Source of the DNA: Acidobacteriota bacterium
Lineage (GTDB): Bacteria > Acidobacteriota > Holophagae > Thermotomaculales > Thermotomaculaceae
DNA: 64,000 nt
Direction of reading: 5' to 3'
NCBI GenBank assembly: GCA_026986725.1
Contig: JALSOA010000124.1
Span: forward strand, 6,296-70,295
Position numbers and translations under genes: made by a program
The notes under the pieces: generated by a model
The model's input: the letters and a program-made list of their open reading frames with translations, nothing else
Told to the model about the DNA's origin: nothing
Databases searched by the model: none
In this document: positions 1 through 45,201 of the stretch, piece by piece
Numbering within the stretch: the stretch's first letter is position 1
Layout: every line of letters starts with the position of its first letter

Positions 1-1929
1 TTGCGTTTGCTCTATGTAACCTTTATTGTACAGTGTTTTTGCCTTCCTTAAAATCTCCCTTTTTAAAGAAAGCATCTTTGTGTTTTCAGGATCAATTTTC
101 AAAACCTTTAACGCCATACTCAATGCCTTTGTGTAATTACTGTCATGGTAGTATTCGGTCGCCTTTTTCAAATAATAATCTTTCAGTAATTGTCTGCATT
201 CCTTTTCAATCTTACCTTCCCTGCCCCATAGATACTTTTCGGATATTGAAAATATCTCTTCAAAGTCCCTGGCTGCACTATCAGTATCTCCTTCCATAAA
301 AGCCTTTTTTCCCGACTGGTACAACCTCCTAACTTTTGAAAGGTTGTCTTTAAGCCCCTTCAACCTTGAAGGCACGCTTATGTTTTTTGCAACATACAAT
401 TGAGTTGCATCAATTATCTTTGTAATAGCATCCACCACTTTACCGTTTAGGTAAAGAGATTTCGCCTCCTTTTCTTTTTCAATAGCCTTTCTCTTTAAAT
501 TTTTCCTGAGAACAAAGTACCTTTTCATCGCCTGTTTTTTCTTCATGTAGTTTTCAAACTTCCTGGCAGTATCATCTTTAACCTGCAACACCTGCTGATT
601 TTCTGGGAATATATCTGCCAGATTGTTTGCAATTTTAAAAGCCTCTTCAACCTTGTTCTCGTCCAGAAGAGAATCTATGTCCTCCAGCTTTGTTGATATG
701 TACTCTCTACTCTTTTCCCGGTACAATTTTTCTCCTTTATCTCTGTAAACTGAGTTTTTATCTATGTTTTTAAGGATAAGGCAAGCATCTTTAAAATTAT
801 TATCTTTTAGTGCATTAACAAACTTGATGTAAATTTCTCTGTTTTTTATCTCAAACCTGGCTCTGTTGTACTCCTTTTCAAACCCTTTTAATTTAAAATT
901 GTCAATCAGATAAACCACATTATCCCAGTCTTCATTTTTATATGAATTTTTTACATCAAGTCTTAATTCTTTTTCAGATATTGACGGCTTGTTTCTTACA
1001 CTTGTTGAAGGACCGGACGGAAGCAGGAGAAGTATTACAAAAAGAAGGACAAATATGCTGCCGGTTATTATATAAAACCTCTTCTTGTTAAACCCTTTTA
1101 CACCCTTTTTTAAATCCCTTTCAATCATTGACGGAGAAAACAATTCACCGGGTGCGATAAAAACAAACTCTTTATCACCAAGTTTTAGAAAATCTCCATT
1201 CTTCAACACAGCCTTTTTAATCTTTTTACCATTGACAAAGGTCCCATTGGTACTTTCACTGTCAACTATCTCGTAATACCCGTCTTTTCTGTTAATAAAA
1301 CAATGAACCCTTGATATGGAAGGGTGATCAATAACAATATTGTTTACATCTTCCCTTCCAATTGTTGTTTCAGCATCCTTTAATTCATACTCCCCTATTA
1401 ACTCCCTGTTTTCATTAAGAAAAACCAGTCTTGCATTCTGAAGCAAGCCTTTAACTCCGTATAAAACGGTTTCTTTCCCTGTTTCCACATCATTTTCTTT
1501 ATCAGTAAAACCTTCATTATTGTCTTCTTCTATTGAACTTACAACATTCTGTACCTCTTCAACCTTTGAAGCATCCATAAACACCGTTCCATCAGAACTA
1601 ATTTCTCGCTCAACCTTTTTGTTTTTGTCAACCATAATATCCACAAGGAACTCAAAAGAAGCAAACTTAACCCTGTCGTTGTGATTCAAAACAACCCTGC
1701 CCTTTATTTGCTCTCCATTTACAAATGTACCGTTGGTGCTGTTCAAATCCTCAAGGTAAAAATTATCATCAAAACACTCAATAAGGGCATGAAAGGAGGA
1801 TACATTCCTATAATTCAAAACATAATCGTTAGAATCTTTCCTGCCAATAGTAACCCTTGTTTCATTTTCACAATCAACAATAATGGGTTTTTCTATATCT
1901 TTGCTCAAGGGTTTTAATACTGCTTTCAT
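1..1929 (-). CDS. Membrane-anchored protein with two N-terminal FHA domains, one TM helix and a TPR-like C-terminal region; 3' end runs off the window (>=643 aa)
   Basis: Absent from the ORF track because it has no stop in the window. The reverse frame from ATG 1929-1927 is open down to nt 1 by hand translation of every 60-nt line. FHA 1: RVTIGRKDSNDYVLNYRNVSSFHALI...DLNSTNGTFVNGEQI. FHA 2: TTIGREDVNNIVIDHPSISRVHCFI...DSESTNGTFVNGKKI. TM: FYIITGSIFVLLFVILLLL. TPR-like tail: ATEYYHDSNYTKALSMALKVLKIDPENTKM. The ATG overlaps the TGA of the upstream gene (ATGA). Confidence 0.8.
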   Translation of the reverse strand, partial: MKAVLKPLSKDIEKPIIVDCENETRVTIGRKDSNDYVLNYRNVSSFHALIECFDDNFYLEDLNSTNGTFVNGEQIKGRVVLNHNDRVKFASFEFLVDIMVDKNKKVEREISSDGTVFMDASKVEEVQNVVSSIEEDNNEGFTDKENDVETGKETVLYGVKGLLQNARLVFLNENRELIGEYELKDAETTIGREDVNNIVIDHPSISRVHCFINRKDGYYEIVDSESTNGTFVNGKKIKKAVLKNGDFLKLGDKEFVFIAPGELFSPSMIERDLKKGVKGFNKKRFYIITGSIFVLLFVILLLLPSGPSTSVRNKPSISEKELRLDVKNSYKNEDWDNVVYLIDNFKLKGFEKEYNRARFEIKNREIYIKFVNALKDNNFKDACLILKNIDKNSVYRDKGEKLYREKSREYISTKLEDIDSLLDENKVEEAFKIANNLADIFPENQQVLQVKDDTARKFENYMKKKQAMKRYFVLRKNLKRKAIEKEKEAKSLYLNGKVVDAITKIIDATQLYVAKNISVPSRLKGLKDNLSKVRRLYQSGKKAFMEGDTDSAARDFEEIFSISEKYLWGREGKIEKECRQLLKDYYLKKATEYYHDSNYTKALSMALKVLKIDPENTKMLSLKREILRKAKTLYNKGYIEQTQ

Positions 1930-2858
1930 TTAAGTAAATTATACCTCCTTAAAGCTATTATGTATATTTGGGAGTTCTCATCGGGTATGGTCTGCATTAT
2001 AGCAAGGTAAACATCCTTTGCACCTTCCCTGTTACCGTCGTTTTCAAGTAACCAGGCATCTTTAAAGAGTTTTTTCAAAGTCATCTTTAATTCTCTTTTG
2101 GTTTTGTTTAACGCAGGTATAATTTCATCCCAAATTGGGGGTTTAGGGGACATAGCCTGAATACTTTTTTTTGCTTTTAAGAAATAAAGAAAAGCGTTGT
2201 AAAGATTTTCCCTGTTCAAATTTTTCATCTTCAATTTTTCTCTGCCAAGGTCAAAAAACCTTTTAGCATTTTCAGGATTTTTTTTGTCTGTTATATCCTT
2301 ATCCATCCTTCTTTCAAGTTTTAAAAAGTAACTGTCAATTACCCCTACCTGAATGGGCCTTTTAACTGTTCTTTTTTTTGAAGGCATCATAAAAACAGCA
2401 AAAATACCACCGATAATTAAGATCAATATCACCCCTAAAAGCAAAAGTGTCTTTTTCTTTTTTCCCTCCCCTGCTTTTTTCAAGTCAGACATAAGATCCT
2501 GTCTTTGAAGTACAACGGTTTTATTTCCAGTGTTCTTTGCGGAGCCCTTTTCAACCCTCTCATTTCCCTCAAGTGAAACCTCCACAACATAACCACAAAA
2601 GGTTATTCTGTCTCCATTGTACAATTTCACCTCATCAACAACCTGAACCCCGTTTACAAAGGTACCATTAACACTTCCTTCGTCTTTTAGAAAATAATTG
2701 TTCCCTTTCTTTAAAATGGTGAAGTGTCTGTTTGATACAGAGGGATCATTGACGATAACATCACATGTTAGCCCCCTGCCATCAATTATCTCCCTTTTAT
2801 CAAAAGTTAACGAACCCTTTTTCACATTTCCCTGGGAAACATGTAGGTGTATTTCCAT
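1926..2858 (-). CDS. FHA domain - TM helix - helical (TPR-like) periplasmic domain protein
   Basis: 310 aa. FHA signature: DGRGLTCDVIVNDPSVSNRHFTILKKGNNYFLKDEGSVNGTFVNG. Hydrophobic span LLLLGVILILIIGGIFAVFMM near aa 147-167, followed by a helical C-terminal region of about 140 aa. Stop overlaps the next start. Confidence 0.8.
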   Translation of the reverse strand: MEIHLHVSQGNVKKGSLTFDKREIIDGRGLTCDVIVNDPSVSNRHFTILKKGNNYFLKDEGSVNGTFVNGVQVVDEVKLYNGDRITFCGYVVEVSLEGNERVEKGSAKNTGNKTVVLQRQDLMSDLKKAGEGKKKKTLLLLGVILILIIGGIFAVFMMPSKKRTVKRPIQVGVIDSYFLKLERRMDKDITDKKNPENAKRFFDLGREKLKMKNLNRENLYNAFLYFLKAKKSIQAMSPKPPIWDEIIPALNKTKRELKMTLKKLFKDAWLLENDGNREGAKDVYLAIMQTIPDENSQIYIIALRRYNLLK

Positions 2859-2896
2859 AAAGCCTCTTTACCTCAAATGAATTTCTTATCTATAAT

Positions 2897-3268
2897 TTAA
2901 CATAAAAACTCAACATCGCAAACACTATTGTTAGATTTTAACAATTTTGTTCCCTCTATCACCGCATAGGCATTTTTTACACTTGCAGTGCTATATGTTT
3001 CAACCCTCAATTGGGAAAGTATCTCACCCTCTTTTGATAGGAATATAATATCTATCGGATAGGCCATGAAAAAGGTGTGTATTGCGTTGCATTTAGTAAG
3101 TAAGAAAGCCTTTCTGTGATCCTCCTTTCTTTGAAAAAGCATTCCTCTTGATCTTGTAAAGAAATTATCGCAGAGTACAAGGTCTTTTATTGAGCAGGTA
3201 CCGTCACAGTATTTTAATTTTATCCTCTTAAACCTTCTAAGGTTTAAACTGTTAAAACCAAGAGGCAA
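2897..3268 (-). CDS. DUF192 (COG1430/UPF0127)-like small protein
   Basis: 123 aa. The core RSRGMLFQRK...AFLLTKCNAIHTFFMAYPIDIIFLSKEGEIL resembles the DUF192 pattern (GLM.R...gMlF...M..t..plDi.f.d..g.i). Its start abuts the tadC stop (3268/3269). Confidence 0.55.
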   Translation of the reverse strand: MPLGFNSLNLRRFKRIKLKYCDGTCSIKDLVLCDNFFTRSRGMLFQRKEDHRKAFLLTKCNAIHTFFMAYPIDIIFLSKEGEILSQLRVETYSTASVKNAYAVIEGTKLLKSNNSVCDVEFLC

Positions 3269-4198
3269 TTAGAAAAGCTCCCCTCTCATCCATCTAACTA
3301 TTATTCCCCCAAATAGAATAAGTACAGTTGACATCAGAATAAAAACAAGGGGGAACATAATTTTAACCGAAGCCTCTCCTGCAGCCTTCTCCGCTCTCTG
3401 AGTTCTGGTTATCCTTAAACTCTCAGCCTGAATCTTCAAAACCTGGGCAACAGGAGTTCCCATCTTTTCTGCCTGAATTATTGCGGTTACAATACTGTTT
3501 AAAGCCTCAACATCAGCTCTGTCAGCAAGGTCAAGCAATGCCTCCTGCTTGGTTTTTCCCATTCTAACTTCCTGCAAAAATTGAAAAAACTCTTCAATCA
3601 AAGGACTTTTAGTGGTGTCCTTCTCAACCATTCTCTTCACTGCTGACAAAAAATCAAGTCCGGCTTCAACCGCCATTGATAGCAGGTCAAGCTTGTAAGG
3701 AAGGTCTTTATATATTTTTATCTTTCTTTCGTCTGCCTGATTTGCAAGAAAAAAATATGGAAACACATTCCCGAAAACAAAGGCAATTAATAAAAAAACC
3801 ACGTTTATACTGCCAAACATTGAGTAATTAAAAAACGCTGCAAGTAATGTAACTATTAACCCTATTGTAAAGGCATACCCGATGTATTCGTAAGGGGTAA
3901 AACCATAGGGATAACCTGCTGCCGCAATCCTTTTCGAAAGCCTCTTTATGTGTTTTTCCGGTATTCCCATCCTGTTTGCCCTGGCAGCAACTGCCAGAAC
4001 AAACGGATATATAGATTTTAAAAAGGGGCTTTCTTCAAATGTCTTCATTTTCTTGTTTTCAAGGTGACCTGCAGGCAGGCTTTTCCTAAACTCCTCCACC
4101 TCGCTTTCAGATGGTAAAAAAAAGTAAACAACAATAAAAATGGCAAAAAAGATCAAAATACTTGCAAGTAAATAGTAAAGTTCAAGACTCATGTTCAC
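3269..4198 (-). CDS. tadC: Tad/Flp pilus assembly inner-membrane platform protein TadC (T2SS-F family)
   Basis: 309 aa polytopic membrane protein. It is the second of two GspF-like paralogs directly after cpaF, matching the tadA-tadB-tadC order. Confidence 0.8.
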   Translation of the reverse strand: MNMSLELYYLLASILIFFAIFIVVYFFLPSESEVEEFRKSLPAGHLENKKMKTFEESPFLKSIYPFVLAVAARANRMGIPEKHIKRLSKRIAAAGYPYGFTPYEYIGYAFTIGLIVTLLAAFFNYSMFGSINVVFLLIAFVFGNVFPYFFLANQADERKIKIYKDLPYKLDLLSMAVEAGLDFLSAVKRMVEKDTTKSPLIEEFFQFLQEVRMGKTKQEALLDLADRADVEALNSIVTAIIQAEKMGTPVAQVLKIQAESLRITRTQRAEKAAGEASVKIMFPLVFILMSTVLILFGGIIVRWMRGELF

Positions 4199-4203
4199 CT
4201 GCC

Positions 4204-5064
4204 TTATATGTCAATGTTAATAACTTTTCTGAGAAAATATATTCCAATTAGCCACAAAACAGCCGCAAAAAACAGTATAACAGTGCCCTGAGGGGTATTG
4301 AAAAGCGGTTGCATAAGGTCAGGGGATATAGATGCAAGTACAAGTGCAAGGGCAAATGGCATACCACCGAGAACAACCGCCTGCATCCTCCCCTGTGCAG
4401 TTAATGCCTTTATCTTTGCTTCAAGTCTCATTATCTCTTTTATCGATTCAGCCAGTTTTTTAAAAATTTCGGCAATGTTACCCCCTGTTTGACGGGAGAT
4501 AAGTATTGCCGTCACAAGCAGGTCAAAGTTGTTTGATCTGAGTCTTTCTGCCATGTTTTCAAGTGCCTGGTCAAAGGGTACCCCAAGTCTTAACTCATTT
4601 ACCAATAATCCGAATTCCTGAGAAACAGGGGGAACCAGCTGCTTGCTTACCACCTCACATGCCTGGGGAAGGGTTAATCCAGCAGACACAGAGTTGGAAA
4701 GCACATAGAGAGCATCTATCAATTGCACCTCCAATTTTTCAGCCCTTTTCCTCGCAGTAAACCATAGAAAAACTCTTGGTAAAAAATACCCTATTACACA
4801 AAATAGAATGGCAAAAAGAACACTGTCAAATGTCAAATACCCAACCAGAGTCATCCCAATTGCTGAAAGAATTGTATTTCTATAAAATCTCTCAGGTGAA
4901 TATGGAATAAAATTCCTGTTTAATTCAGTTCCAACCTTTTCTATATACCCCTGTTTGTACCTTTTATAACCAAGAAGTACTGCCTCATAAATGGAATAGG
5001 CAAAAAATGCAATCCCAAAAAATATAAAAATGTTTGAAACCCAGAAAACCAGTGTCTCGTACAT
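4204..5064 (-). CDS. tadB: Tad/Flp pilus assembly inner-membrane platform protein TadB (T2SS-F family)
   Basis: 286 aa. TM helices flank a cytoplasmic GspF-like helical domain (LIDALYVLSNSVSAGLTLPQA...). It starts 3 nt after cpaF. Confidence 0.8.
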   Translation of the reverse strand: MYETLVFWVSNIFIFFGIAFFAYSIYEAVLLGYKRYKQGYIEKVGTELNRNFIPYSPERFYRNTILSAIGMTLVGYLTFDSVLFAILFCVIGYFLPRVFLWFTARKRAEKLEVQLIDALYVLSNSVSAGLTLPQACEVVSKQLVPPVSQEFGLLVNELRLGVPFDQALENMAERLRSNNFDLLVTAILISRQTGGNIAEIFKKLAESIKEIMRLEAKIKALTAQGRMQAVVLGGMPFALALVLASISPDLMQPLFNTPQGTVILFFAAVLWLIGIYFLRKVINIDI

Positions 5065-5067
5065 AAT

Positions 5068-6759
5068 TTACACCCTGAATAGATCCTCGGGCACGGGTAT
5101 CCCTCTTGCCTTGAACTCTGCAAGGAAGGACGGCAAATAGCCTGTTGCCATATGTTTGCCAATTACCCTGCCCTCACTATCAATACCAGCCTGTTCAAAT
5201 CTGAAAATCTCCTCAGTTACTATGTTGTAATCGTCATCAACCCCCAAAACCTCCGTAATACTTGTAATCTTTCTGGTACCATCACTTAACCTCTGCTGCT
5301 GAACAATAATGTCAATTGCAGACGCTATCTGATCCCGAATTGCCCTTATTGGTAACTCCATTCCTGACATTAAAACCATTGTTTCAAGCCTTCTTAAAAT
5401 ATCATCAGGAGAGTTGGCATGTCCGGTGGTCATTGAACCAGCATGACCTGTGTTCATAGCCTGAAGCATGTCCAGTGCTTCACCACCTCTGCACTCTCCA
5501 ACAATTATTCTGTCTGGCCTCATTCTCAAAGCGTTTTTGACAAGGTCTCTTATCGTTATCTCACCCTTTCCCTCAACATTTGGTGGCTTTGACTCAAGGG
5601 AAACCACATGTTTCTGAGGAAGTCTCAATTCAGCAGCATCCTCAATGGTTACAATTCTCTCATCTCCAGGAATAAAAGAGGATAACACATTTAAAAGGGT
5701 GGTTTTACCTGATCCTGTTCCACCGGAGATTATTATATTTTTTCTTCCTTTAACACATATCTCAAGGAATGTGGCCATGGGCCTGTTTAAAGTACCAAAC
5801 CTTACAAGATCATCAATTGTCAGGTTCTTTTTACCGAACTTTCTTATGGTCAAACATGGACCCTTCAAAGCAAGCGGAGGTATTATTGCATTTACCCTGG
5901 AGCCATCCTTCAATCTTGCATCAACAAGAGGCTGAGATTCGTCAATTCTTTTTCCGATAGGTGCAACAATCCTCTCTATTATTGCCATCAACGCAGCATC
6001 AGAGGAAAACCTTTTATCTGTTTCAACGATCTTCCCCTTTTTTTCAACATAGATAAGGTCCTTGTGTATCACCATGATTTCACTGACATCGTCATCCCGT
6101 AAAAAGTCTTCCAGGGGGCCAAGCCCAACAACCTCATCAAGCATCTCTTTTTTCAGGGTTTTTCTGTCCACCCATATTGGAATTTCACCTTTCATTTGAT
6201 CAAGGATCAGGTCAAGTTTCTTGCTTACAAGACTCTTTAACTCCTCATCTGCTTTTGAGGTAAAATCAACCCATCTTAAATCAAGCATCTCCAGAAGCCT
6301 TTTGTGTATCTTATCTCTTATCCCGGAAAGAGCATCAAGTTGCTCCACCGTTAACTTTTTTTCCGTTCTTTCCTTTCTAAATGGGGATTGAATTTCAACC
6401 TTGTTCTTTTTTATTTCAGGCTGTGATTTTGCTTCCTTCTTAACATTCTTCGTTTCCGCTTTCTCATTAATTTCAGGGGAAAAAATAAGACCGAACTCTC
6501 CAACGATAATGGGATTGTTTAAAGGGACTTCAACCCTCTTTCCTCTTTCCAGTCTGTCTTTGCCTACAAACACCCCATTGGAGCTCGTATCAGTTATAAA
6601 AACCCTGTCTCCTGAAACCTCAACCGTGCAATGTTTTCTTGAAACAACAGGGGATGGAAGGACTATATATGCTGGAGCCTCCCTCCCCACGATAAAATTA
6701 GATGGAATGTTTTTAAACTCTTTTCTTGAACCGTCTTTGAAAACAACGGTTAACCTCAT
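5068..6759 (-). CDS. cpaF: CpaF/TadA secretion ATPase with N-terminal FHA domain
   Basis: 563 aa. N-terminal FHA: IVGREAPAYIVLPSPVVSRKHCTVEVSGDRVFITDTSSNGVFVG. K/E-rich linker. VirB11/T2SS-E ATPase core with Walker A GGTGSGKTT, IVTIEDAAEL, RPDRIIVGECRGGEA and His box TGHAGSMTTGHAN. Confidence 0.9.
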   Translation of the reverse strand: MRLTVVFKDGSRKEFKNIPSNFIVGREAPAYIVLPSPVVSRKHCTVEVSGDRVFITDTSSNGVFVGKDRLERGKRVEVPLNNPIIVGEFGLIFSPEINEKAETKNVKKEAKSQPEIKKNKVEIQSPFRKERTEKKLTVEQLDALSGIRDKIHKRLLEMLDLRWVDFTSKADEELKSLVSKKLDLILDQMKGEIPIWVDRKTLKKEMLDEVVGLGPLEDFLRDDDVSEIMVIHKDLIYVEKKGKIVETDKRFSSDAALMAIIERIVAPIGKRIDESQPLVDARLKDGSRVNAIIPPLALKGPCLTIRKFGKKNLTIDDLVRFGTLNRPMATFLEICVKGRKNIIISGGTGSGKTTLLNVLSSFIPGDERIVTIEDAAELRLPQKHVVSLESKPPNVEGKGEITIRDLVKNALRMRPDRIIVGECRGGEALDMLQAMNTGHAGSMTTGHANSPDDILRRLETMVLMSGMELPIRAIRDQIASAIDIIVQQQRLSDGTRKITSITEVLGVDDDYNIVTEEIFRFEQAGIDSEGRVIGKHMATGYLPSFLAEFKARGIPVPEDLFRV

Positions 6760-7973
6760 TTTTTATTCCTTTGCCACCACTTTTTCTTTTCTTTGTGAAA
6801 TTCTTTAATAGGTTGATCAATCATCTGCTTCATCTCCTTGTTTTCTGCAGTAACCTTTTTTGCTGTTATAAAGATAACACCATCAGTTACTCCCCTTTGA
6901 TAATTCTTCGACCTGAACAGAGCACCAAGCACCGGAATGCTTCCAAGTCCTGGAACTTTCTCAATGTCCTGTGATTTAATCCTTTTTATAAAGCCACCAA
7001 GGGCAATGGTTTGCCCCTCTTTAATCCTTACAATTGTATTGATCTTTCTGGTGTTCAATGCTGGTATGCCATCAACACTAACTCCGCTTAATTCCGACAC
7101 CTCTGAATCAATCTTTATCCTCATGTTACCAAGGGAATCTATCTCTGGAGTGACCACAAATCTGGTTCCGTACTTTTTCCACACAACCGAAGTGGTGTTT
7201 TGAGTAACATTTCTCGTTCCAAACTCTCCACCAACGAAGTATTCTGCAGGTTGACCGGAAACCGTAATGACCCGGTGAGTGTCGTAAACCTTGGCATCTC
7301 CATTGCCAACCATTATATTCAAAGCCTGGCCAAAGTTTGAAACAATACCAATAGTGCTCTTTAAAACATCACCACTGCTAAAATCCTTTGCATAGTTCAC
7401 TGTCAAAGGCTTTATTGCCTGATTCCAGTTTATACCGTAATTACCCATCTTGTTGGTGTTGACCTCAACAAAGTTAAATTCAACCATAATGTTGTCTTCT
7501 TTTGGAAGGTATGCTCTGTTAAATTCAGCAAATTTAACAACCTGATTTCCATAAAGTTTTAAAACCTTGTCAATTCTTTTATTGTCCTTTTCGGTTAGAA
7601 TCTCTCCATCAATTATTACCCTGTCCCCAACCACTTTTATCTCTATTCCTTCAACCCCATCCAGCAATTGCTCAACCTCCTTTTTGACCTTCTCCGGGTC
7701 ATGAGAAATTACATTAACCGTTATCTCTTCAGTGGATCCGTCCCTTTTTAACAGGGTAACCGTTGTAATACCCGCTCTGACAGCCTTTAAAATTATTTTG
7801 GACTGATCCTTTGGGATCACTATCCTGACAACTGAGGGGTTACCTGAGGAAACTGATTTAACCCCTTCAGCGGGCAACACCTTTTGTTTGCCCACAACCA
7901 TTGTGATTTCCTGCGCCATTAAAGTAAAACACATCAAAATCAGAACAAACAACATAAAAACCTTTTTCTTCAT
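6756..7973 (-). CDS. cpaC: CpaC/RcpA outer-membrane secretin
   Basis: 405 aa. Signal peptide MKKKVFMLFVLILMCFTLMAQE. Pilus-N type segment VKSVSSGNPSVVRIVIP...GITTVTLL. C-terminal secretin core NTRKINTIVRIKEGQTIALGGFI...VPGLGSIPVLGALFRS. Confidence 0.9.
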   Translation of the reverse strand: MKKKVFMLFVLILMCFTLMAQEITMVVGKQKVLPAEGVKSVSSGNPSVVRIVIPKDQSKIILKAVRAGITTVTLLKRDGSTEEITVNVISHDPEKVKKEVEQLLDGVEGIEIKVVGDRVIIDGEILTEKDNKRIDKVLKLYGNQVVKFAEFNRAYLPKEDNIMVEFNFVEVNTNKMGNYGINWNQAIKPLTVNYAKDFSSGDVLKSTIGIVSNFGQALNIMVGNGDAKVYDTHRVITVSGQPAEYFVGGEFGTRNVTQNTTSVVWKKYGTRFVVTPEIDSLGNMRIKIDSEVSELSGVSVDGIPALNTRKINTIVRIKEGQTIALGGFIKRIKSQDIEKVPGLGSIPVLGALFRSKNYQRGVTDGVIFITAKKVTAENKEMKQMIDQPIKEFHKEKKKWWQRNKK

Positions 7974-7989
7974 AACATGCCTCCTTTAT

Positions 7990-8790
7990 TTATTTTAAAA
8001 CCTCTATCCTTTTCTTATTCATCTGATTTCTTTTCTTTTGAAGTTGTTTCAATGTGTCCCCACTGAATATGCTTGCAAAGTTAACCTTTTTCAGATCTTC
8101 CATAGTTTTTGTATCTTCCGGATTCCTCAAAACAAAAACGAGTTTTGTTTTTCTTCTCACAAACTCAATCAATTCAGCCTCTTCCGGAGTAACCGAAAGT
8201 GTTATGGTTCTATAATGTCGGGCTATCCTTGCGGTTTTTCTGTTGGGAGTACCAACCTGGCTGCCTATTGCCAAAACAGGCACACTCTGGAGTATGGTAA
8301 CCGTTTGACTTACCACGGTGCCCCCAACTCTGTTAAATGTTGCAAGGATATCAACATAATCCCCCGGTCTGATAAGACCAGCAACCCCTGTTTCAGAGTC
8401 AACCCTGACAGTTATTGCTCTTTCCCCGGGGAGTATTGCACCGGATAAAAACCTTGTGGAAAGACCGGCTACCCCACCTTCTCTGAAATGTGAGGCCAAA
8501 ATAGGCTCCCCTTTTTTAATATCAACCTTTGGTGGTACACCAAGTATCCTGGTAACATCCCTGACAGAAACAGCATCTTTAGGTACAAACTCTTTGAAGT
8601 ATTTTCTAACTGTTAGCATTGACCTTTCAATTGGAGTACCTGCTGCTATGTTCTTTCTGGCAACCAGAACCCTCACCAGTCTGGATTCATCCGTGTATTT
8701 CTTTTTCTCCCCCATAATGTAAAGTTGAACAAGTATTACTCCAATTACTGCAACAATAATTGCAAATACCATTGCCTTTTTTCTATCCAT
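7990..8790 (-). CDS. cpaB: CpaB/RcpC Flp pilus assembly protein
   Basis: 266 aa. N-terminal anchor MVFAIIVAVIGVILV, SAF-like VLVARKNIAAGTPI, and an RcpC-like C-terminal part (GDYVDILATF...). It sits immediately upstream of the secretin. Confidence 0.8.
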   Translation of the reverse strand: MDRKKAMVFAIIVAVIGVILVQLYIMGEKKKYTDESRLVRVLVARKNIAAGTPIERSMLTVRKYFKEFVPKDAVSVRDVTRILGVPPKVDIKKGEPILASHFREGGVAGLSTRFLSGAILPGERAITVRVDSETGVAGLIRPGDYVDILATFNRVGGTVVSQTVTILQSVPVLAIGSQVGTPNRKTARIARHYRTITLSVTPEEAELIEFVRRKTKLVFVLRNPEDTKTMEDLKKVNFASIFSGDTLKQLQKKRNQMNKKRIEVLK

Positions 8791-8808
8791 AAAACCTCCA
8801 GATAAAAG

Positions 8809-9744
8809 TTATTCATACCTCTCAACCATTACAACACTTGTATAGTTTAACCTGTCAGTACCAAATGTTATGTAAACAGATCTATTTCCCTTTTTTGCAT
8901 AGATAAATCTCTTCTCTCCCTTCTTTGCAAGTGCCTGAACAACACTGTCAGGTATCTCCCAGCCATTCCCCCTTAAATCCGAAAGATAGTATATAATTGT
9001 TGAATCAAGGTTATCGTCAACCCTATATGCCACCATTTTACTTGAGGAAAAAGAATCCATCTGTGCAAGAGATAAAAGTCTTTGAGAATATGGATGTCTG
9101 TCAATATCATCCAGATCAAAACCTGGCAGGTCTTTATCCCCCTGAGGGATAAATCTTCTAAAATCTATCATCCTGTCAGTCCAGTATCTTACAACCGTGG
9201 TTTTTGAAGAATATGGTTTATCTTTGAATGCCATAACAACCTTCGGAACAACCTTTTTGTATCTATCTTTATCAATGTAAACCTTTGTATTGTCCCCAAT
9301 ATCTATTACCCCCAGCGCCCCAAAGGTTTCTCCCCTGAATTCAAGTACAGGAGGAGCCATCTTTGCAAAGATTGTCTCAAAAAACCTTATCGCTCTGAAG
9401 GCATCGTCTCCCGGTTTTACCCCAGCTTCTTCAAGTTGCTTATCAGTAAAAATTCTGATAAACGGAGGGTTGTAAAGATTTTTGTAATAATCAAGTACCT
9501 CCTTTATCTCAGCATCCACCACCTCAACCGAGTAGGTAAAAGGAACCCCATTCACTATTGATTTTCCAGTATGAGAGTAAACACCACCCTCTCGAAAGTC
9601 AGGGATATACTTACTGCCTCCATACACAAGATCAAAAATATCGGCATTGCCTTTTTGAACAAGAAGGTGAAACCTGCTTCCCGCCCACAGGATCAAAAGT
9701 GAAAAACAGATTATAGTGGCAACCTTTGACAGTTTTTTTATCAT
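8809..9744 (-). CDS. Hypothetical N-terminally anchored periplasmic protein inside the tad operon
   Basis: 311 aa. Single hydrophobic N-terminus VATIICFSLLILWAG and no motif I recognise. ATGA overlap with the upstream tadE-like gene; 18 nt gap to cpaB. Confidence 0.6.
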   Translation of the reverse strand: MIKKLSKVATIICFSLLILWAGSRFHLLVQKGNADIFDLVYGGSKYIPDFREGGVYSHTGKSIVNGVPFTYSVEVVDAEIKEVLDYYKNLYNPPFIRIFTDKQLEEAGVKPGDDAFRAIRFFETIFAKMAPPVLEFRGETFGALGVIDIGDNTKVYIDKDRYKKVVPKVVMAFKDKPYSSKTTVVRYWTDRMIDFRRFIPQGDKDLPGFDLDDIDRHPYSQRLLSLAQMDSFSSSKMVAYRVDDNLDSTIIYYLSDLRGNGWEIPDSVVQALAKKGEKRFIYAKKGNRSVYITFGTDRLNYTSVVMVERYE

Positions 9745-10307
9745 CCTGCTAAATCTCCTATTGCTGAGCCGAAGGATTTAAGCAGATCCCATAAAAACTC
9801 TATCAATCCTCCCACATCCTTGTGACTCCAGGTGTTTTTATCTATGTAATAGGTGGTGCTGATGGTTACTTTTGCTTTGTTTCCTATGATCTTCTGAGTG
9901 AATTTATGCTTTACCTCAATCTGGTACGAAACCTTATAACCTTTTGTGCTGCTTATTTTGTCAAGAACATTCAGAAAAAAACCTAAAACCTCATTTGTCC
10001 CACCATTGTTTTCACTGAAAACGGTTTCCAAAGCCTCAGATGAACTAACCTTTTCAAAACTAACTTTATCTTTATCAACCCTGTTAAAAAAGATCTTTCC
10101 CAGATTTTCCTTAACTTTCTGGTCATCAACTTTAAATTCACCTTTTTCAATTGTTACATACCTCACTGCAGAAATGGTCTGCTGTTTTATATAGAAGGCT
10201 TTAACAAAAAATATCGCCCCAAATATAAGGATAAGGTAAACTGGCAAAACTATGACAAACTCTGTCATAGACTGGCCTTTTTCATCAGTGAATAATAATG
10301 TCACCAT
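9741..10307 (-). CDS. TadE/TadF-like minor (pseudo)pilin
   Basis: 188 aa. Prepilin-type N-terminus KGQSMTEFVIVLPVYLILIFGAIFFV (G-X4-EF followed by a hydrophobic helix). Confidence 0.75.
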   Translation of the reverse strand: MVTLLFTDEKGQSMTEFVIVLPVYLILIFGAIFFVKAFYIKQQTISAVRYVTIEKGEFKVDDQKVKENLGKIFFNRVDKDKVSFEKVSSSEALETVFSENNGGTNEVLGFFLNVLDKISSTKGYKVSYQIEVKHKFTQKIIGNKAKVTISTTYYIDKNTWSHKDVGGLIEFLWDLLKSFGSAIGDLAG

Positions 10308-12207
10308 TGAAGATCTCCTTTAAAGAGTTAAAGATACCCATAAAACTATCTGAACTATTCGAATTGCCACCACCAAGAGCAACCGCCTGGGACACACCTG
10401 ACGAATCCAGATCTTTCATCAGATCCTTGAACTTGGTAAACCTTACAAGGCGCACCTGCCAGCATTGATTGAAAAGGTGAGGCTCCACCCCATCAGGAAC
10501 ATATATCTCTGCCTGTGAAAAATATACCATCCCAACAGGGTTTGGATTTTTTAAACCTGCCTTTATTTCAATTATATTTTCTTTGGGCAAAGTGTAAACA
10601 ATACCAACATAATCTTTATGCGTCTGCCAGAACTCTTTACCACCATCGTCTTCCCTTTTTAAAAGATAAGGCTTTGGTTTATCATCGTCTGAACTTCTGC
10701 TTCCCCAGGATTCTGAAGGGGAAACCTGCTCGGTAGTCTCATACTCTGCTGAAAGGACTTTTGTTTCAGTTATTTTATATGCCTTTACCATTCCCGCCAT
10801 GGTTGGTTCGTTTTCAACAACAAGGCCATAATCATCCGGATTAACATATATAACATCCCTGGTTCTTTTAAAACAATGCCTGTGCATAACATGATTAAAA
10901 TAATTTTTAGCATCATCGCCTTCAAGAATAAGACTTTTACCCTCATCTGGAAGCCAGGCATCCTTACCATCCACAACCGGCCTGTAATAACCACAATGTT
11001 GCTGCTCATTCCCATTTGCATCAGTATAGGTGGACAAAACCCGGCAAGGCTCCGGATCTCCACAGGTACAATCCTGATTTACCAGAATATCATCAATGGT
11101 GTGTTGACCCGTTCTTATTGTGATCCCCACCGTTATTGAAACTGTTATCTTTGACAATTTATCTGCATTCTGCTTCATTTCATCACAATTGTCTGTTGTT
11201 TTTTTATAACTATAAGTTCCAGGGTGATCGGTGCACATGGACTCATAGGTGGCTTTTACAACTGCATCATACACCTCTCCAATAAATGGAGGAACAAATC
11301 TTAAAAGTGGGTAAAAAAGGTAAGCCTTAAAGTATTCCAGTGGTGCAGGACCAAAATCCCCAAAGGTAATAACATCCATTAAATCACCGAGTTTGTCACT
11401 TAACTTATCGGTTGCCATAAAACTTGTGGTGGGCATGTGTTCTATGTTTTTCTGCCCTTTCATCCCTATGTCTCCAATCTTGTCTATCTTGGTGCCCTCA
11501 GGGACAGCATGCCAGTTAAAGTCTGTGGCCGTTGGCCTGCAAAGTGATTCAAATTTTCTATCATCATCATCGATAAAAGGAAGTTTCAAATCAACATCAG
11601 GAATAAGGGGATACAAAAAACCTATGGTAGCACCATTGGCAAGCCCTGTTTTAACAGCCTCAACCTGTGCTATGAATGGGATAACTTCAACCTCAATCTC
11701 CTCAGCCTCAGTCAGGTAATCCTCCACATCCCATAAAATACCATTGCCATTGTCTTCAAGACTATCTGCAAGAACATTCTCGTAAATATTCACCCCCACC
11801 TCTTCAATTAGATACTGCTGGGGAACAGTCACAAACTCAAGAAAAGCCCCCACAGCATAGGTGTATGGAATCTCCATCAATATTTCAGCAAGTTTCTCCT
11901 GAACCGTTAATAAAGCCTTTGCTATTTTATTTGCTCGCTTAAATGATTTCATAAGGATTATAAGGGCAAGAACCTGTGACTGGGTAACATTAAGCATTGC
12001 GGTTAAATTGTATCCCCTGCACATCCATGTTGCGCCTGACACCGCAACAGCATCGGCATTGTTAGTAAGCCTCATCTTCCTTGATGTAACATCCCCCACA
12101 TTCAAAATCATAAAGACAAACATGGCTATAAAAAGAAAAGTTATGGCTGAGAAAACTATTGATTGACCACTTTCATTTTTGTGCAGATCTTTAAACCTCA
12201 AAAACAT
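10285..12207 (-). CDS. TadG-like large pilus-associated protein, Cys-rich C-terminal half
   Basis: 640 aa. The N-terminus SGQSIVFSAITFLFIAMFVFMILNVGDVTSRKMRLTNNADAVAVSGA matches the Tad (TadE/G-like) N-terminal pattern. Later Cys clusters: CTDHPGTYSYKKTTDNCDE and NQDCTCGDPEPCRV...QHCGYY. No vWA MIDAS motif seen by eye. Confidence 0.7.
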   Translation of the reverse strand: MFLRFKDLHKNESGQSIVFSAITFLFIAMFVFMILNVGDVTSRKMRLTNNADAVAVSGATWMCRGYNLTAMLNVTQSQVLALIILMKSFKRANKIAKALLTVQEKLAEILMEIPYTYAVGAFLEFVTVPQQYLIEEVGVNIYENVLADSLEDNGNGILWDVEDYLTEAEEIEVEVIPFIAQVEAVKTGLANGATIGFLYPLIPDVDLKLPFIDDDDRKFESLCRPTATDFNWHAVPEGTKIDKIGDIGMKGQKNIEHMPTTSFMATDKLSDKLGDLMDVITFGDFGPAPLEYFKAYLFYPLLRFVPPFIGEVYDAVVKATYESMCTDHPGTYSYKKTTDNCDEMKQNADKLSKITVSITVGITIRTGQHTIDDILVNQDCTCGDPEPCRVLSTYTDANGNEQQHCGYYRPVVDGKDAWLPDEGKSLILEGDDAKNYFNHVMHRHCFKRTRDVIYVNPDDYGLVVENEPTMAGMVKAYKITETKVLSAEYETTEQVSPSESWGSRSSDDDKPKPYLLKREDDGGKEFWQTHKDYVGIVYTLPKENIIEIKAGLKNPNPVGMVYFSQAEIYVPDGVEPHLFNQCWQVRLVRFTKFKDLMKDLDSSGVSQAVALGGGNSNSSDSFMGIFNSLKEIFNGDIIIH

Positions 12208-12216
12208 ACCTATCCC

Positions 12217-13374
12217 TTAATGAGATGCCTTCATTTCGACATGCATCGCACAATCAGCGGTTATAGGCAAAACATAACCACTGCAATCTATCCTTAATAC
12301 TGAAAAGTATTCATTGTCAAGGTAGCCCAGATACTCCTGAGTTGACTGGCTCATGCCAAGAGCATCAAAGAGATCCTTATCAAACTTCTTACCCATAAAC
12401 TTGTTTGCAATCGGAATAACAAGGTAATAGGGGAACTTCACCCGAACAACCACCAGGTCACTTCGTGTATAATCCTTCCCATCGTGCTGGACATTGAGGT
12501 CTGTATCAAGGATATCCACATCGGTAAAAAGAGCAGCATACATATACCGGTAAATAACAGCCTGGGTGTATTTGTCAAGGTCATTGACCCCAAAAACATC
12601 CCCTATAAAACCAACAAAATCCGACAAAAGATTGATTAATTCGTCAATTTGAAGGGTCTGAATAATATCCATGGCAGTATAGGTTTTGTTTCCAAAAATT
12701 GTTATTTTAAAATCATTCAAAAATGCTTTGGATCCGTGACAAACAGGCATTAAAGACAATGCTGCAGCCTTTTTTATTAGTTTGTATTTGTTTAACTTTT
12801 TTTCTTCTTCGGAATTTGAACTGCTGTTTTCTTCATTGTTGCTCTCATTAGCAGGCAGGTTAATATGCCCTGAAACCTCCTGCTCAATAGATTGAGGTAT
12901 AACCACAACTGCAGCCCTTGCAGCATTAAATGCAGCATAATTGACAACCAGTTTGGCTGTATAAATTAAACTTAATTGCATAATGCACAGGGTGATAAAC
13001 AACTGGAGGGGAAAGATAAGAATAAACTCCGTTAATGCCTGACCATCTTCGTCATCACCAATATCTTTTATCCTTCTCTTTGATCTCTTGGCAGCATTAA
13101 CTGTTGAAAGAATTATCATTAAAAATATTAAAAAGCAGAAAACTGCAAGAAAAACAGGGACTGCCAGTTTAACCTTTTCAAAACGGGAGCCTTCTTCCTC
13201 AACCAGACCATTCGAAACATCTTTACCACTATCAATGGATTCAATTGCTTTCTCAAAAGACCTTCTCACAAAAAACTTTTGATAGGCATAGGTTGCAACC
13301 ATGGAAGCAAGAGCAATTAGAACAAGTACTATAATGTACTCCCCAATTGATGAGCCCTTCCTTCCGCTTAACAT
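12217..13374 (-). CDS. In-frame fusion of a Flp-like prepilin segment and a TadE-like pseudopilin (two prepilin-peptidase-type sites)
   Basis: 385 aa. Site 1: RKGSSIGEYIIVLVLIALASMV (G-X4-EY). A second TM follows: AVPVFLAVFCFLIFLMIILS. Basic leader and site 2: KRSKRRIKDIGDDEDGQALTEFILIFPLQLF (G-X4-EF). No stop lies between the two modules. Confidence 0.7.
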   Translation of the reverse strand: MLSGRKGSSIGEYIIVLVLIALASMVATYAYQKFFVRRSFEKAIESIDSGKDVSNGLVEEEGSRFEKVKLAVPVFLAVFCFLIFLMIILSTVNAAKRSKRRIKDIGDDEDGQALTEFILIFPLQLFITLCIMQLSLIYTAKLVVNYAAFNAARAAVVVIPQSIEQEVSGHINLPANESNNEENSSSNSEEEKKLNKYKLIKKAAALSLMPVCHGSKAFLNDFKITIFGNKTYTAMDIIQTLQIDELINLLSDFVGFIGDVFGVNDLDKYTQAVIYRYMYAALFTDVDILDTDLNVQHDGKDYTRSDLVVVRVKFPYYLVIPIANKFMGKKFDKDLFDALGMSQSTQEYLGYLDNEYFSVLRIDCSGYVLPITADCAMHVEMKASH

Positions 13375-13383
13375 AAAAACCTC

Positions 13384-13935
13384 TTAAATCTTTATGTAAT
13401 CAAAAATGGATACATTAAACATAAACTCTAAAATAGCCCATAGTGTTCCAAGACATATAGCAAAACCAAAGGGTATCTTCTCACTCTCTTCAGGATTCAA
13501 AGATAAAGGTTTTATTCCAGGAAAGATAAAAGAGAAAAGGTAAGAAAAAATAACCCTGAATATATTTCTCATTCCCCTTAAAAACCTTCCCTTCCATATC
13601 ATCATAGCAATGGACATTAAACCACCAACAAGCGCTGAATAAAAAGCAGCGTATATAACAAAGGGATACCCTTTTATAGCCCCAATTGCAGCCATTAGTT
13701 TCACATCCCCTCCCCCCAATCCGCCTATAAGGAAAACTATGAGAAAGAGGATAAATCCAACAAGTAACCCGATAATAGAAGATTGAAAGTGTTTAATGCC
13801 AAGAAAAAGATTAAATAACACTCCAAATACTATTGCCGGATAAGTAACTTTGTTGAAGATCTTTCCATACATAACATCGGTTATGGCACAAACTGCAATT
13901 ACAGCGTATAAAAGGATATCCCTTGCAAGTACCAT
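13384..13935 (-). CDS. tadV: Prepilin peptidase, A24 family (TadV/CpaA type)
   Basis: 183 aa polytopic protein. First catalytic Asp region AITDVMYGKI and second GGGDVKLMAAIG. Confidence 0.85.
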   Translation of the reverse strand: MVLARDILLYAVIAVCAITDVMYGKIFNKVTYPAIVFGVLFNLFLGIKHFQSSIIGLLVGFILFLIVFLIGGLGGGDVKLMAAIGAIKGYPFVIYAAFYSALVGGLMSIAMMIWKGRFLRGMRNIFRVIFSYLFSFIFPGIKPLSLNPEESEKIPFGFAICLGTLWAILEFMFNVSIFDYIKI

Positions 13936-13945
13936 AATCTAAACC

Positions 13946-14188
13946 TTAATTTCCTCCAAAAGCACTCTGAGAAGCCTGCCCAAGTGTATCTGTTGATTTC
14001 TTAAAAAGGTTTTTGATTTTACTTCCAAAAGCCTTTACCATTACAAGCACAAGAATAGCAACAAGCACAATAATAATTATGTACTCCGTCATGCCCTGAC
14101 CTGTTTCATCCTCGTGAAACCTCTTTGCAATACCCTTAAAATCAATCATTTTGACCTCATTAAAGAGATCCACCAAACCTGAAAACAT
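13946..14188 (-). CDS. flp: Flp/Fap family pilin
   Basis: The track ORF starts at GTG 14194. I prefer ATG 14188, which has AGGAGG 5 nt upstream. Flp motif: ETGQGMTEYIIIIVLVAILVLVMV (G-X4-EY plus a hydrophobic helix). Confidence 0.8.
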   Translation of the reverse strand: MFSGLVDLFNEVKMIDFKGIAKRFHEDETGQGMTEYIIIIVLVAILVLVMVKAFGSKIKNLFKKSTDTLGQASQSAFGGN

Positions 14189-14214
14189 AGTCACCTCCTG
14201 AAAATTATGTTATT

Positions 14215-14427
14215 TTAGGGAAAAGGCAATTGCACAAAAAAACTGATCAGGTTGAAATTAAAATTAACAGCCTGAATAAATGCCTTTAATATCCACAGAA
14301 TAGGAATGAAAATAAAAACAAGTAACAGTGCATACTCAGTGTAAGTCTGTGCCCCTTCATCTTTAAAAACCTGAAAATCATTTTTTTCACAAAACGAATA
14401 ATTCTCTTGATCCCTACTCAATTCCAT
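14215..14427 (-). CDS. Second, atypical Flp-like small protein
   Basis: 70 aa. EGAQTYTEYALLLVFIFIPILWIL has G-X5-EY spacing, not the canonical X4. The C-terminus is hydrophobic. It is the first gene of the operon. Confidence 0.5.
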   Translation of the reverse strand: MELSRDQENYSFCEKNDFQVFKDEGAQTYTEYALLLVFIFIPILWILKAFIQAVNFNFNLISFFVQLPFP

Positions 14428-14456
14428 CCATCATCTCCATCTTAAATGTTATTTAT

Positions 14457-14485
14457 AAGTTAATCCTCAAAAAAATAAAAGTCAA
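14457..14485 (-). promoter_or_regulatory. Candidate sigma70-type promoter of the tad operon
   Basis: Reverse strand reads TTGACT-N17-TAACTT, about 30 nt upstream of the first ATG. By-eye match only. Confidence 0.3.
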
Positions 14486-14628
14486 GTGCTATATGTCACA
14501 TAAAAGGGTTTCTTTTAAATTTTTATTCTAAAAGTAAAAAAACAAAAATGTGAACTAATTTTCACTTTTTTTTTAATCACAGGCATTTTGTTTTAAAATA
14601 AATAAAGAAGCAAAAAAAAGGAGGGATT

Positions 14629-16820: not shown

Positions 16821-16897
16821 TGGTGCGCCCGGCGGGATTTGAACCCGCAATTTCCGGCTCCGGAGGCCGGCGTTTTATCCAGTTAAACTACGGGCAC
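16821..16897 (-). tRNA. tRNA-Arg (anticodon CCG), CCA encoded
   Basis: The reverse complement GTGCCCGTAGTTTAACTGGATAAAACGCCGGCCTCCGGAGCCGGAAATTGCGGGTTCAAATCCCGCCGGGCGCACCA folds as a 77-nt cloverleaf. It has a 7-bp acceptor stem, 4-bp D stem, anticodon stem CCGGC/GCCGG with loop CTCCGGA, and T arm GCGGG-TTCAAAT-CCCGC. Confidence 0.95.
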
Positions 16898-16905
16898 ATT
16901 GTTTG

Positions 16906-17670
16906 TTAAATATCTTTGAGATACTGTTTATCGATCCAGCCGTTTAATCCGTCAGGAAGGTATATGTGAACATAACCGTTTATCTCTTCGCCCTCTTTAA
17001 CCTTTGTTCCTTTATGTATTTTAAATAAAACAGTTGATGATGTGTTGGGCTCACTGAACACTTCCAGCGTTTGAGAAAAAACAATGCCCTCTTTTGCAAA
17101 TGTGAATTGATACCTTGAATAGAAAAGAGAGAAAAATATGAGAAAAAGCAATAATGATACCCCTATACCGTAATAACTTTTCTTTTTGTCAAACCTTCCG
17201 CTTAAAAGCATTGCAATAAAAATAAAAATCATAAAAAAGAACAAGATAGAAAGTATTGTTAAAGTGTTCAATGAGAAAGAAAGGTAAATCTTTTTGAAGA
17301 AAGCAACAAAAAAACCATCTTTAATATTCTTTTCCCTATCCTTTAGTTTTGAAACTATGAGGGAAAGGTTTGTTTCCAATTCTTTGTTTAATGGATGTAT
17401 CCTCTTTGCCTTTTCAAAGTAAAGCCTGGAGTTTGCAATGTCATTTAACCTGTAATAGGTGCAACCAAGGTTAAAATAAAGTTTGAAAGACTTTAAATCC
17501 TTCTTTTCAAGGCTTTTTTTAATTGAATTGTAAACCTTTAAAGCCTCTTTGTACTTTTTTTCATTGTAAAGTTTATTTGCCTTTGTGAACTGTGTATTTA
17601 AATTAAGAGTTGATGCATAAAGAGGTAAAAAAGCGAATAAAAACACCAGATAAAAAGTAACCCTTTTCAT
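16906..17670 (-). CDS. BatE-like TPR / SH3-domain membrane protein
   Basis: 254 aa. Signal peptide, TPR repeats, TM segments, and an SH3-like C-terminus GYVHIYLPDGLNGWIDKQYL. Last gene of the Bat-type operon, with an ATGA overlap to batD. Confidence 0.65.
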   Translation of the reverse strand: MKRVTFYLVFLFAFLPLYASTLNLNTQFTKANKLYNEKKYKEALKVYNSIKKSLEKKDLKSFKLYFNLGCTYYRLNDIANSRLYFEKAKRIHPLNKELETNLSLIVSKLKDREKNIKDGFFVAFFKKIYLSFSLNTLTILSILFFFMIFIFIAMLLSGRFDKKKSYYGIGVSLLLFLIFFSLFYSRYQFTFAKEGIVFSQTLEVFSEPNTSSTVLFKIHKGTKVKEGEEINGYVHIYLPDGLNGWIDKQYLKDI

Positions 17671-19451: not shown

Positions 19452-19482
19452 GGTTCGTCCTTTTTTCTTACTCTTCAATAGT

Positions 19483-20214: not shown

Positions 20215-20221
20215 AACCACC

Positions 20222-23994: not shown

Positions 23995-24021
23995 CTATTC
24001 CCCCGAATCAAGCACAAACAA

Positions 24022-28502: not shown

Positions 28503-28520
28503 TATTATCCTCACTGAAAA

Positions 28521-29836: not shown

Positions 29837-29905
29837 TGATAAAAGAAATCTTTAAAAGAAATACTTGACTGATTAACTTGTACTCCAAATGTTTCCTATT
29901 CACCC

Positions 29906-29933: not shown

Positions 29934-29965
29934 AAAACTGTAAAAATAATCAGGGAGATGGCTTT

Positions 29966-45164: not shown

Positions 45165-45169
45165 AAAAT

Positions 45170-45190: not shown

Positions 45191-45201
45191 TAGAGAGGAA
45201 T

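Follow-up and report, generated by a model that had tools for sequence, protein, structure and literature searches.

We analyzed a 64,000-nt stretch of acidobacterial DNA (contig JALSOA010000124.1, positions 6,296 to 70,295; hereafter the window), one end of which carries a Tad/Flp pilus operon rich in forkhead-associated (FHA) domains. Judged by its sequence, the window contains a complete and unsplit gene set of the Kil type, i.e. of the Tad variant described in Myxococcus xanthus (PMC8460266): a known system is met here in a new lineage, and the system itself is not new. We consider it probable, with some reserve, that the operon encodes a Kil-type Tad (type IVc) machine in which a network of FHA domains acts as a phosphothreonine (pThr)-dependent docking system standing in for TadZ. 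The host is a Thermotomaculales-like acidobacterium of hydrothermal vents, related to Thermotomaculum.

The operon and its Kil counterparts

Open reading frame (ORF) listing and translation of the window give 15 consecutive minus-strand genes, g1 to g15, from 14427 down to nt 1, with intergenic gaps of -23 to +38 nt (the largest, 38 nt, between g13 and g14). No convincing internal terminator was found within g1-g15. A first-pass annotation of this DNA had already described one 15-gene minus-strand operon with gaps of at most 38 nt; this is confirmed, and its gene order and domain calls agree with our scans of g1-g15 with Pfam and NCBIfam profiles at curated cut-offs. The window edge truncates the operon, g15 running off nt 1. 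Upstream of g1 there is a gap of 201 nt, then a divergent peptidase S9 gene; promoter-like sites in this region are as frequent in shuffled sequence, i.e. they are not in excess. The features are, in the order of transcription:

14525..14554, minus strand: promoter-like site TTCACA-18-TAGAAT upstream of g1 (consensus match only)
14215..14427, minus strand: g1, small Flp-like pilin of 70 amino acids (aa), with one transmembrane (TM) helix, leader G-AQTYTEY and conserved C-terminal FFVQLPFP
13946..14194, minus strand: g2, Flp pilin, leader G/QGMTEY (Pfam Flp_Fap, 32.4 bits for a cut-off of 32.2)
13384..13935, minus strand: g3, prepilin peptidase of the TadV/CpaA/KilA type (Pfam Peptidase_A24, 2e-20)
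12217..13374, minus strand: g4, TadE-like minor pilin, KilM-like (Pfam TadE at residues 111-153; blastp with KilM4, 1e-11)
10285..12207, minus strand: g5, TadG-like large minor pilin, KilN-like (Pfam Tad PF13400, 21.3 bits, under the cut-off of 22.3)
9741..10307, minus strand: g6, TadE/TadF-like minor pilin at a KilL-like position (Pfam TadE, 7e-9)
8809..9744, minus strand: g7, bitopic periplasmic protein, 311 aa (position conserved, between the minor pilins and cpaB)
7990..8790, minus strand: g8, CpaB/RcpC (KilB) (Pfam RcpC and SAF; TIGR03177, 171.8 bits for a cut-off of 71)
6756..7973, minus strand: g9, short secretin, KilC-like, 405 aa (pil_N and Secretin domains)
5068..6759, minus strand: g10, FHA-fused CpaF/TadA ATPase, KilF-like (Pfam FHA, 51.3 bits, and T2SSE, 209.7 bits)
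4204..5064, minus strand: g11, TadB (KilG) (Pfam T2SSF)
3269..4198, minus strand: g12, TadC (KilH) (Pfam T2SSF)
2897..3268, minus strand: g13, DUF192 protein (Pfam DUF192, 31.1 bits)
1926..2858, minus strand: g14, FHA-TM protein (Pfam FHA, 69 bits, FHA at residues 27-87)
1..1929, minus strand: g15, 2xFHA-TM-TPR-like protein (two Pfam FHA, 150.5 bits, and weak TPR; TM helix at residues 282-302; start ATG at 1929)

The Kil system is an FHA-rich Tad variant with an FHA-bearing ATPase (FHA-KilF), several FHA proteins, a short secretin without the N0 domain and a single ATPase, and its component list gives no TadZ (PMC8460266). In Supplementary file 1 of that paper, cluster 1 includes the FHA proteins MXAN_3104 and KilD, and in cluster 2 MXAN_4649 (FHA, PrgH-like) and MXAN_4648 (FHA and TPR) adjoin kilH. 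Cluster 2 of M. xanthus (L009 in our set of loci) was located by means of a KilG fragment (160 aa) of the published supermatrix; tblastn and blastp then served to compare it with the window. Identities in blastp are 33% between g8 and KilB (4e-30), 38.5% between g11 and KilG (3e-69) and 40% between g12 and KilH (1e-50). The accessory FHA proteins also match: g14 aligns with MXAN_4649 at 38% over residues 1-100 (3e-14), with a second, C-terminal high-scoring segment pair at 9e-4, and g15 aligns with MXAN_4648 in the FHA domain (38%, 7e-12) and over 230 aa of the C-terminal helical region (2.5e-4). MXAN_4649 and MXAN_4648 each have a single TM helix past the FHA domain, like g14 and g15, and the order CpaB, TadB, TadC, FHA-TM, FHA-TM-TPR is identical in the window and in cluster 2. 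Position and sequence together identify g14 as the counterpart of MXAN_4649 and g15 as that of MXAN_4648.

The secretin and the FHA-ATPase lie between CpaB and TadB in the window, and both in cluster 1 in M. xanthus. The core of g10 is 60-62% identical to M. xanthus KilF. As a proxy for cluster 1 we used a Myxococcota metagenome-assembled genome (MAG; L090), in which the order is secretin, FHA-ATPase and, at the KilD position, a 2xFHA-TM protein; the 26% identity of the latter to g15 (7e-21) is a comparison with the proxy and not with M. xanthus KilD.

The window thus resembles M. xanthus Kil in its N-terminal FHA domain on a single ATPase, in the lack of TadZ, in its short pil_N secretin without N0, in its TadE/TadG/TadF-type trio and in the FHA-TM and FHA-TM-TPR genes that directly follow the second platform gene. 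For the secretin g9, no STN or Secretin_N (N0) match appears at E<=0.01, as in the short secretin of the Kil type, and NCBIfam secretin models match only in part. Disparities nevertheless exist. The window forms one unsplit operon, in contrast to the two distant clusters of M. xanthus; MXAN_4648 bears a single FHA domain against two in g15, and the periplasmic part of g14 is much shorter than that of MXAN_4649 (310 vs 484 aa). The DUF192 gene and the Flp-like leader fused to a TadE-like pilin are extras relative to Kil, as are the genes for secreted TPR, HU and CsgG-like proteins found downstream in relatives (see below), and no T3SS* partner (T3SS, type III secretion system) is seen in the window. 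The host here belongs to a thermophilic acidobacterial lineage with no known predation, while Myxococcus is predatory. The first-pass annotation had suggested a likeness to Kil, and both the FHA-fused ATPase and the MXAN_4649 and MXAN_4648 counterparts bear this out. It had also stated that prior characterisation of this exact FHA-rich, TadZ-less architecture would refute its proposal; at the level of architecture this largely applies, since the design is already published as the Kil system (PMC8460266). Literature searches on Thermotomaculum pili, and on FHA with CpaF and TadZ, gave nothing beyond the Kil papers.

The same order is found in relatives. The nearest CpaF homologue is 86% identical to g10, and its 90%-identity cluster includes the Thermotomaculum hydrothermale protein (the species belongs to Acidobacteriota, Holophagae, Thermotomaculales). 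Three loci are syntenic: L088, in the complete genome of T. hydrothermale (AP017470.1, 776,222-797,901), L001, a metagenomic contig (CpaF 85% identical), and L003, an “Acidobacteria bacterium” MAG contig (CpaF 73% identical). L001 and L003 have a 16-gene order as in the window. L088 has it too, except that its TadG-like gene (4540-6479) is in two parts, i.e. ORFs of 463 and 178 aa, against single ORFs of 640 aa in the window and 641 aa in L001; the division could reflect a frameshift, a pseudogene or an error in sequencing. In L089, which comes from a “Nitrospira SG8_3”-type MAG and whose CpaF is 53% identical, the order recurs in full: a g7-like gene and DUF192 are there, and TadC is followed by an FHA-TM gene. 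The gene order, whose conservation the first-pass annotation had left to be established, is therefore kept in these four loci. The marine contigs L004-L006 present a variant, with DUF192 at the operon head and one FHA-TM gene after TadC.

The content past nt 1 was deduced from L001, L003 and L088. In all three, g15 is followed by genes for a secreted TPR protein of 318-337 aa, HU and a CsgG-like protein (16828-19104, 16895-19201 and 16830-19109, respectively). A signal peptide is present in the TPR protein, which shows no clear lipobox and matches PilW and GltE only weakly; the CsgG-like protein has no lipobox. The first strong terminator-like hairpin of L088 comes only after the CsgG-like gene. 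By this comparison the operon has 16 genes or more, and the transcription unit may comprise 18.

We then placed the ATPase in a neighbour-joining tree (240 columns; 26 taxa from the published supermatrix, g10 and nine database homologues). There g10 lies with T. hydrothermale inside a clade supported at 98%, which comprises the Kil ATPases of Myxococcales, Bdellovibrionales and Bradymonadales, and besides these the beta/gamma-proteobacterial group and other FHA-CpaFs. This clade is separate from alphaproteobacterial CpaF (44-47% identity to g10) and from a Desulfovibrio-type group. FHA-fused CpaF proteins are abundant: PF00498 occurs in nearly all of the best 120 matches, and among the named sources are Acidobacteria, Deltaproteobacteria, Myxococcota, Schekmanbacteria, “Nitrospira SG8_3” and CSSED10-310. 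The Kil papers, which report FHA enrichment, treated as characteristic of a Tad-like killing machine, and the recruitment of KilD to contact sites, place such systems in predatory “delta-proteobacteria” only (PMC8460266, PMC12075869). Taken together, the loci and homologues above show that known predators are not the only carriers of the Kil-type architecture.

The FHA proteins and the absence of TadZ

The canonical Tad/Flp core set is all present in the operon: Flp pilin, A24 peptidase, CpaB/RcpC, secretin (RcpA/CpaC), TadA/CpaF, TadB and TadC. It is shared, together with pseudopilins of the TadE/F/G type, with the tad locus of Aggregatibacter and the cpa locus of Caulobacter. Unlike them, the window has no TadZ/CpaE and no clear TadD/RcpB lipoprotein, and it has an FHA domain on the ATPase and two extra FHA membrane proteins. 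These absences come from Pfam scans of all window ORFs of at least 150 aa and of the flanks of related loci. Among these window ORFs there is no TadZ/ParA/MinD, no Hanks kinase and no PP2C phosphatase, in agreement with the first reading of the sequence. TadZ/ParA/MinD is also missing from the flanks of L001, L003, L088 and L089. TadZ/CpaE, which adjoins tadA in canonical Tad loci, was thus found neither in the operon nor elsewhere in the window, and relatives lack it in their flanks. In particular, relatives do not have it just past the place of nt 1, where its presence would have spoken against the initial proposal; they carry there the TPR, HU and CsgG-like genes. The statement that a TadD/RcpB-type lipoprotein is lacking holds for the window, and is weakened by the secreted TPR protein that relatives encode directly past nt 1.

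The four FHA modules first recognized in three proteins score 51 bits (g10), 69 bits (g14) and 150 bits (g15, two domains) for a Pfam cut-off of 20.7. The FHA domain of g10 occupies residues 23-85 (nt 6505-6693); solved CpaF structures align to g10 from residue 136 on only, the FHA region being missing in them. Hydropathy gives g14 a single TM helix (134-162), followed by a helical periplasmic tail, and g15 a single TM helix (283-311), followed by an all-alpha, TPR-like periplasmic domain. The two genes overlap by 4 nt. The cluster representative of g15 has 658 aa, so that about 15 codons are cut off by the window edge (orthologues have 673-684 aa). Its AlphaFold2 (AF2) model, with a mean predicted local distance difference test (pLDDT) of 83, shows two FHA sandwiches and the TM helix, and its periplasmic domain is all-alpha and predicted with confidence.

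All four FHA domains retain the pThr-binding pattern GR...SxxH...SxNG, and the pocket residues of g15 do not vary among 16 orthologues, the most distant of which is 37% identical. The nearest solved FHA sequences and folds are those of GarA/OdhI, FhaA/Rv0020c, Rv1747, Ki67 and Bdellovibrio DgcB, i.e. pThr binders. The top 50 Foldseek matches of the g15 model are all FHA, with no SctD (YscD/PrgH) among them. In the disordered linker of g15 the only invariant residues are the motifs G-T115-V/L-x-x-D and T154-V-L-Y/F-G-x-K. In g14 and its relatives from several lineages, GNK-T114-V-V-L/I stands about 15 residues past the FHA domain, and MXAN_4649 has DATRPIR twice. The linker motifs of these three proteins are all of the form T-x-x-hydrophobic, the usual pattern of FHA ligands, which makes T114 of g14 and T115 and T154 of g15 candidate phospho-sites.

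Proposed mechanism and alternatives

By homology, the g1 and g2 pilins and the g3 peptidase are assigned to the fibre, g8 and g9 to the outer conduit, and g11 and g12 to the inner-membrane platform. The trio g4-g6 corresponds to the “tip” minor pilins KilM-KilN-KilL, and the motor is one FHA-fused CpaF hexamer. In the mechanism that we propose, the cytoplasmic FHA domains of g14 and g15 and that of the ATPase would form a pThr-dependent docking network. The conserved T-x-x-hydrophobic sites of the two linkers, that of g14 and that of g15, would be substrates of a Ser/Thr kinase whose gene lies elsewhere and, once phosphorylated, would be ligands for FHA domains in cis or in trans. Binding would recruit the ATPase to the TadB/C platform, or release it there, and so switch pilus assembly on, which is classically the job of TadZ. 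On the periplasmic side, the helical domains of g14 and g15, and the secreted TPR protein whose gene comes next in relatives, would connect the platform with CpaB and the secretin. A pThr-dependent scaffold in place of TadZ is plausible in view of the conserved pockets and linkers. The output would be a Flp pilus with a specialised tip, more likely serving surface or cell contact than prey killing.

Several observations weigh against this proposal. The T-x-x-hydrophobic motif carries little information. Hanks kinase and PP2C are absent from the 64-kb window and from the 10-kb flanks of five related loci. Both g14 (42 bits) and g15 (88.3 bits) pass the cut-off (33.2) of Pfam Yop-YscD_cpl, a phospho-independent FHA-like family. 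In the ATPase tree only the deep split is resolved, inner nodes having 10-60% support, and a strict placement in a “Kil clade” is unsupported. Finally, the split TadG-like gene in the published genome makes the activity of the system uncertain in T. hydrothermale.

The main alternative, to which we give a clearly smaller though real share of belief, is a structural ring: g14 and g15 would be a phospho-independent scaffold of the YscD/PrgH type, holding the ATPase under the platform without any gating. The Yop-YscD_cpl scores just mentioned fit such a role, as do the PrgH-like HHpred annotation of MXAN_4649 in the Kil paper and the fact that neither kinase nor phosphatase was found near any examined locus. 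But a purely structural role accords poorly with canonical pThr pockets in four of four FHA domains, invariant among g15 orthologues. Moreover sequence and fold comparisons with the PDB both give pThr binders as the best matches (GarA, OdhI, FhaA and DgcB), with no YscD or PrgH in the top 50, and the periplasmic domain of g15 is predicted to be all-alpha.

It is improbable, in our opinion, that the operon encodes a true Kil killing apparatus and that Thermotomaculales-like bacteria are undescribed predators. The part-for-part match to the M. xanthus Kil clusters, down to the accessory FHA proteins and the tip-type trio, is what this idea has for it. However, phylogenetically scattered MAGs (Acidobacteriota, “Nitrospira SG8_3”) share the architecture, as would be expected of a general Tad subtype, and FHA-CpaF proteins, as proteins rather than full loci, are named from Schekmanbacteria and CSSED10-310 as well. 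The window lacks a T3SS*-like partner, and the tip proteins, in which the killing specificity of M. xanthus sits, are poorly conserved here, with N-terminal matches only. T. hydrothermale was isolated and grows axenically as an anaerobic heterotroph, which also counts against predation. We regard as similarly doubtful the wider proposition that vent bacteria of the Thermotomaculum group attack their neighbours by contact, that Kil-like antagonism is old and widespread, and that the FHA network is an ancestral pThr switch replacing TadZ.

That the operon encodes a standard adhesive Tad/Flp pilus, with FHA genes of another pathway lying there by chance and TadZ elsewhere in the genome, has very little probability: the core Tad parts are all canonical by hidden Markov models and the TadZ scan covered the window and the flanks of relatives rather than the whole genome, but the FHA genes overlap or abut tad genes, their positions are kept across 53-85% CpaF identity and in M. 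xanthus, and chance co-location is very unlikely because synteny is conserved across phyla and one FHA domain is fused to the motor.

Other envelope systems offer comparisons for the pThr-dependent docking network. The Tad system of Bdellovibrio bacteriovorus has a TadZA fusion, whose ParA/MinD-like TadZ binds RomR (bioRxiv 10.64898/2026.07.08.737194). As in g10, a positioning or regulatory module is fused there at the N-terminus of the ATPase, and the two ATPases fall in one large clade; the fused module is TadZ in Bdellovibrio and FHA here. The Fha1/TagH-PpkA-PppA switch of the type VI secretion system (T6SS) associates FHA domains with an envelope-spanning machine and follows the same pThr logic of assembly. 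TIGR03354 (TagH) matches g10 and g14 weakly, far under the family cut-off (51 vs 120 bits). With these sub-threshold matches, no kinase or phosphatase at the locus and no T6SS parts, a Fha module of the T6SS type was rejected. With the YscD/PrgH (SctD) proteins of T3SS, g14 and g15 share a bitopic layout, i.e. a cytoplasmic FHA fold, a TM helix and a periplasmic domain, and scores above the Yop-YscD_cpl cut-off. Membership of the SctD family was rejected: the FHA pockets are canonical, unlike those of SctD, whose FHA fold is degenerate, the periplasmic part of g15 is predicted to be all-alpha and not of the alpha/beta ring-building kind, and the top 50 Foldseek matches include no SctD.

Pilins, accessory genes and the rest of the window

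The small protein g1 has no match in the Pfam scan. A conserved ORF of 56-67 aa takes its place in L001, L003 and L088, and L005 has there a related Flp-like ORF of 62 aa. For g2 the true start is likely the ATG at 14188; its orthologues have 79-80 aa. The architecture of g4 is composite: an N-terminal Flp-like leader (G/SSIGEY) with a TM helix, a return TM helix, then a TadE leader (G/QALTEF). This fused N-terminus is present in L088, L001 and L003 and absent in a further locus (L007) and in M. xanthus. Both putative cleavage sites of g4 are on the predicted cytoplasmic side, and the single gene might give two pilin-like products. The sub-threshold Pfam call for g5 is backed by blastp with the TadG-like KilN4 of M. 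xanthus (MXAN_4659; 5e-10). By analogy with the minor-pilin tip-complex model for Kil (PMC12075869), g5 is likely the backbone of the pilus tip.

Pfam and NCBIfam scans assign no family to g7. Its homologues were searched, 23 sequences were aligned, and an AF2 model was compared with the PDB. There are only 25 clusters of homologues; relatives in L089 and L005 are 25-26% identical and stand at the same position. The AF2 model (pLDDT 76, medium confidence) has no significant fold match in the PDB by Foldseek.

The DUF192 gene is found at the g13 position in L001, L088 and L089 (12654-13007 in the latter) and at the operon head in L004-L006 (2414-2764 in L005). In three lineages or more, FHA-CpaF Tad loci come with a DUF192 gene, at varied positions, which suggests an unrecognised accessory role. 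A literature search on DUF192 found nothing relevant.

Elsewhere in the window, a fifth FHA protein is encoded 30 kb from the operon (45154-45930, plus strand, 258 aa), with a cyclic nucleotide-binding domain (1e-23) followed by FHA (5e-13). An operon of the Bat/MoxR type (16906-25017, minus strand; MoxR AAA_3 ATPase, DUF58, two VWA, TPR, BatD and TPR-SH3) lies a few genes from the tad operon, past the divergent peptidase S9 gene and a tRNA gene, tRNA-Arg(CCG) at 16821-16897. At 28001-30000 the GC content falls to 29.7%, against about 37% elsewhere. This patch carries an N6/N4 DNA methylase (28521-29306) next to an ORF without family (27840-28514) and may be a restriction-modification islet. 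After an acetate/butyrate-kinase-like gene, two overlapping plus-strand ORFs (31036-31896 and 31781-32473), both with partial PTA_PTB phosphate acyltransferase matches, look like one frameshifted gene.

For the Kil family, what is new here is the host lineage, the unsplit operon, the correspondence of g14 with MXAN_4649 and of g15 with MXAN_4648, and the candidate phospho-sites. The two FHA domains of g15, the Flp-TadE fusion, DUF192, g7 and the downstream TPR, HU and CsgG-like genes are details specific to the lineage. The Kil parts list is thus available in one compact operon, and this small-genome (2.3 Mb), cultured and apparently non-predatory thermophilic lineage provides an unsplit reference locus. 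The MXAN_4648/4649 correspondence opens tests in Myxococcus, which is genetically tractable. Because the Kil-type order occurs in an acidobacterial lineage and in a “Nitrospira SG8_3”-type MAG, FHA scaffolding is more likely a general design of Tad systems without TadZ than an add-on specific to predation.

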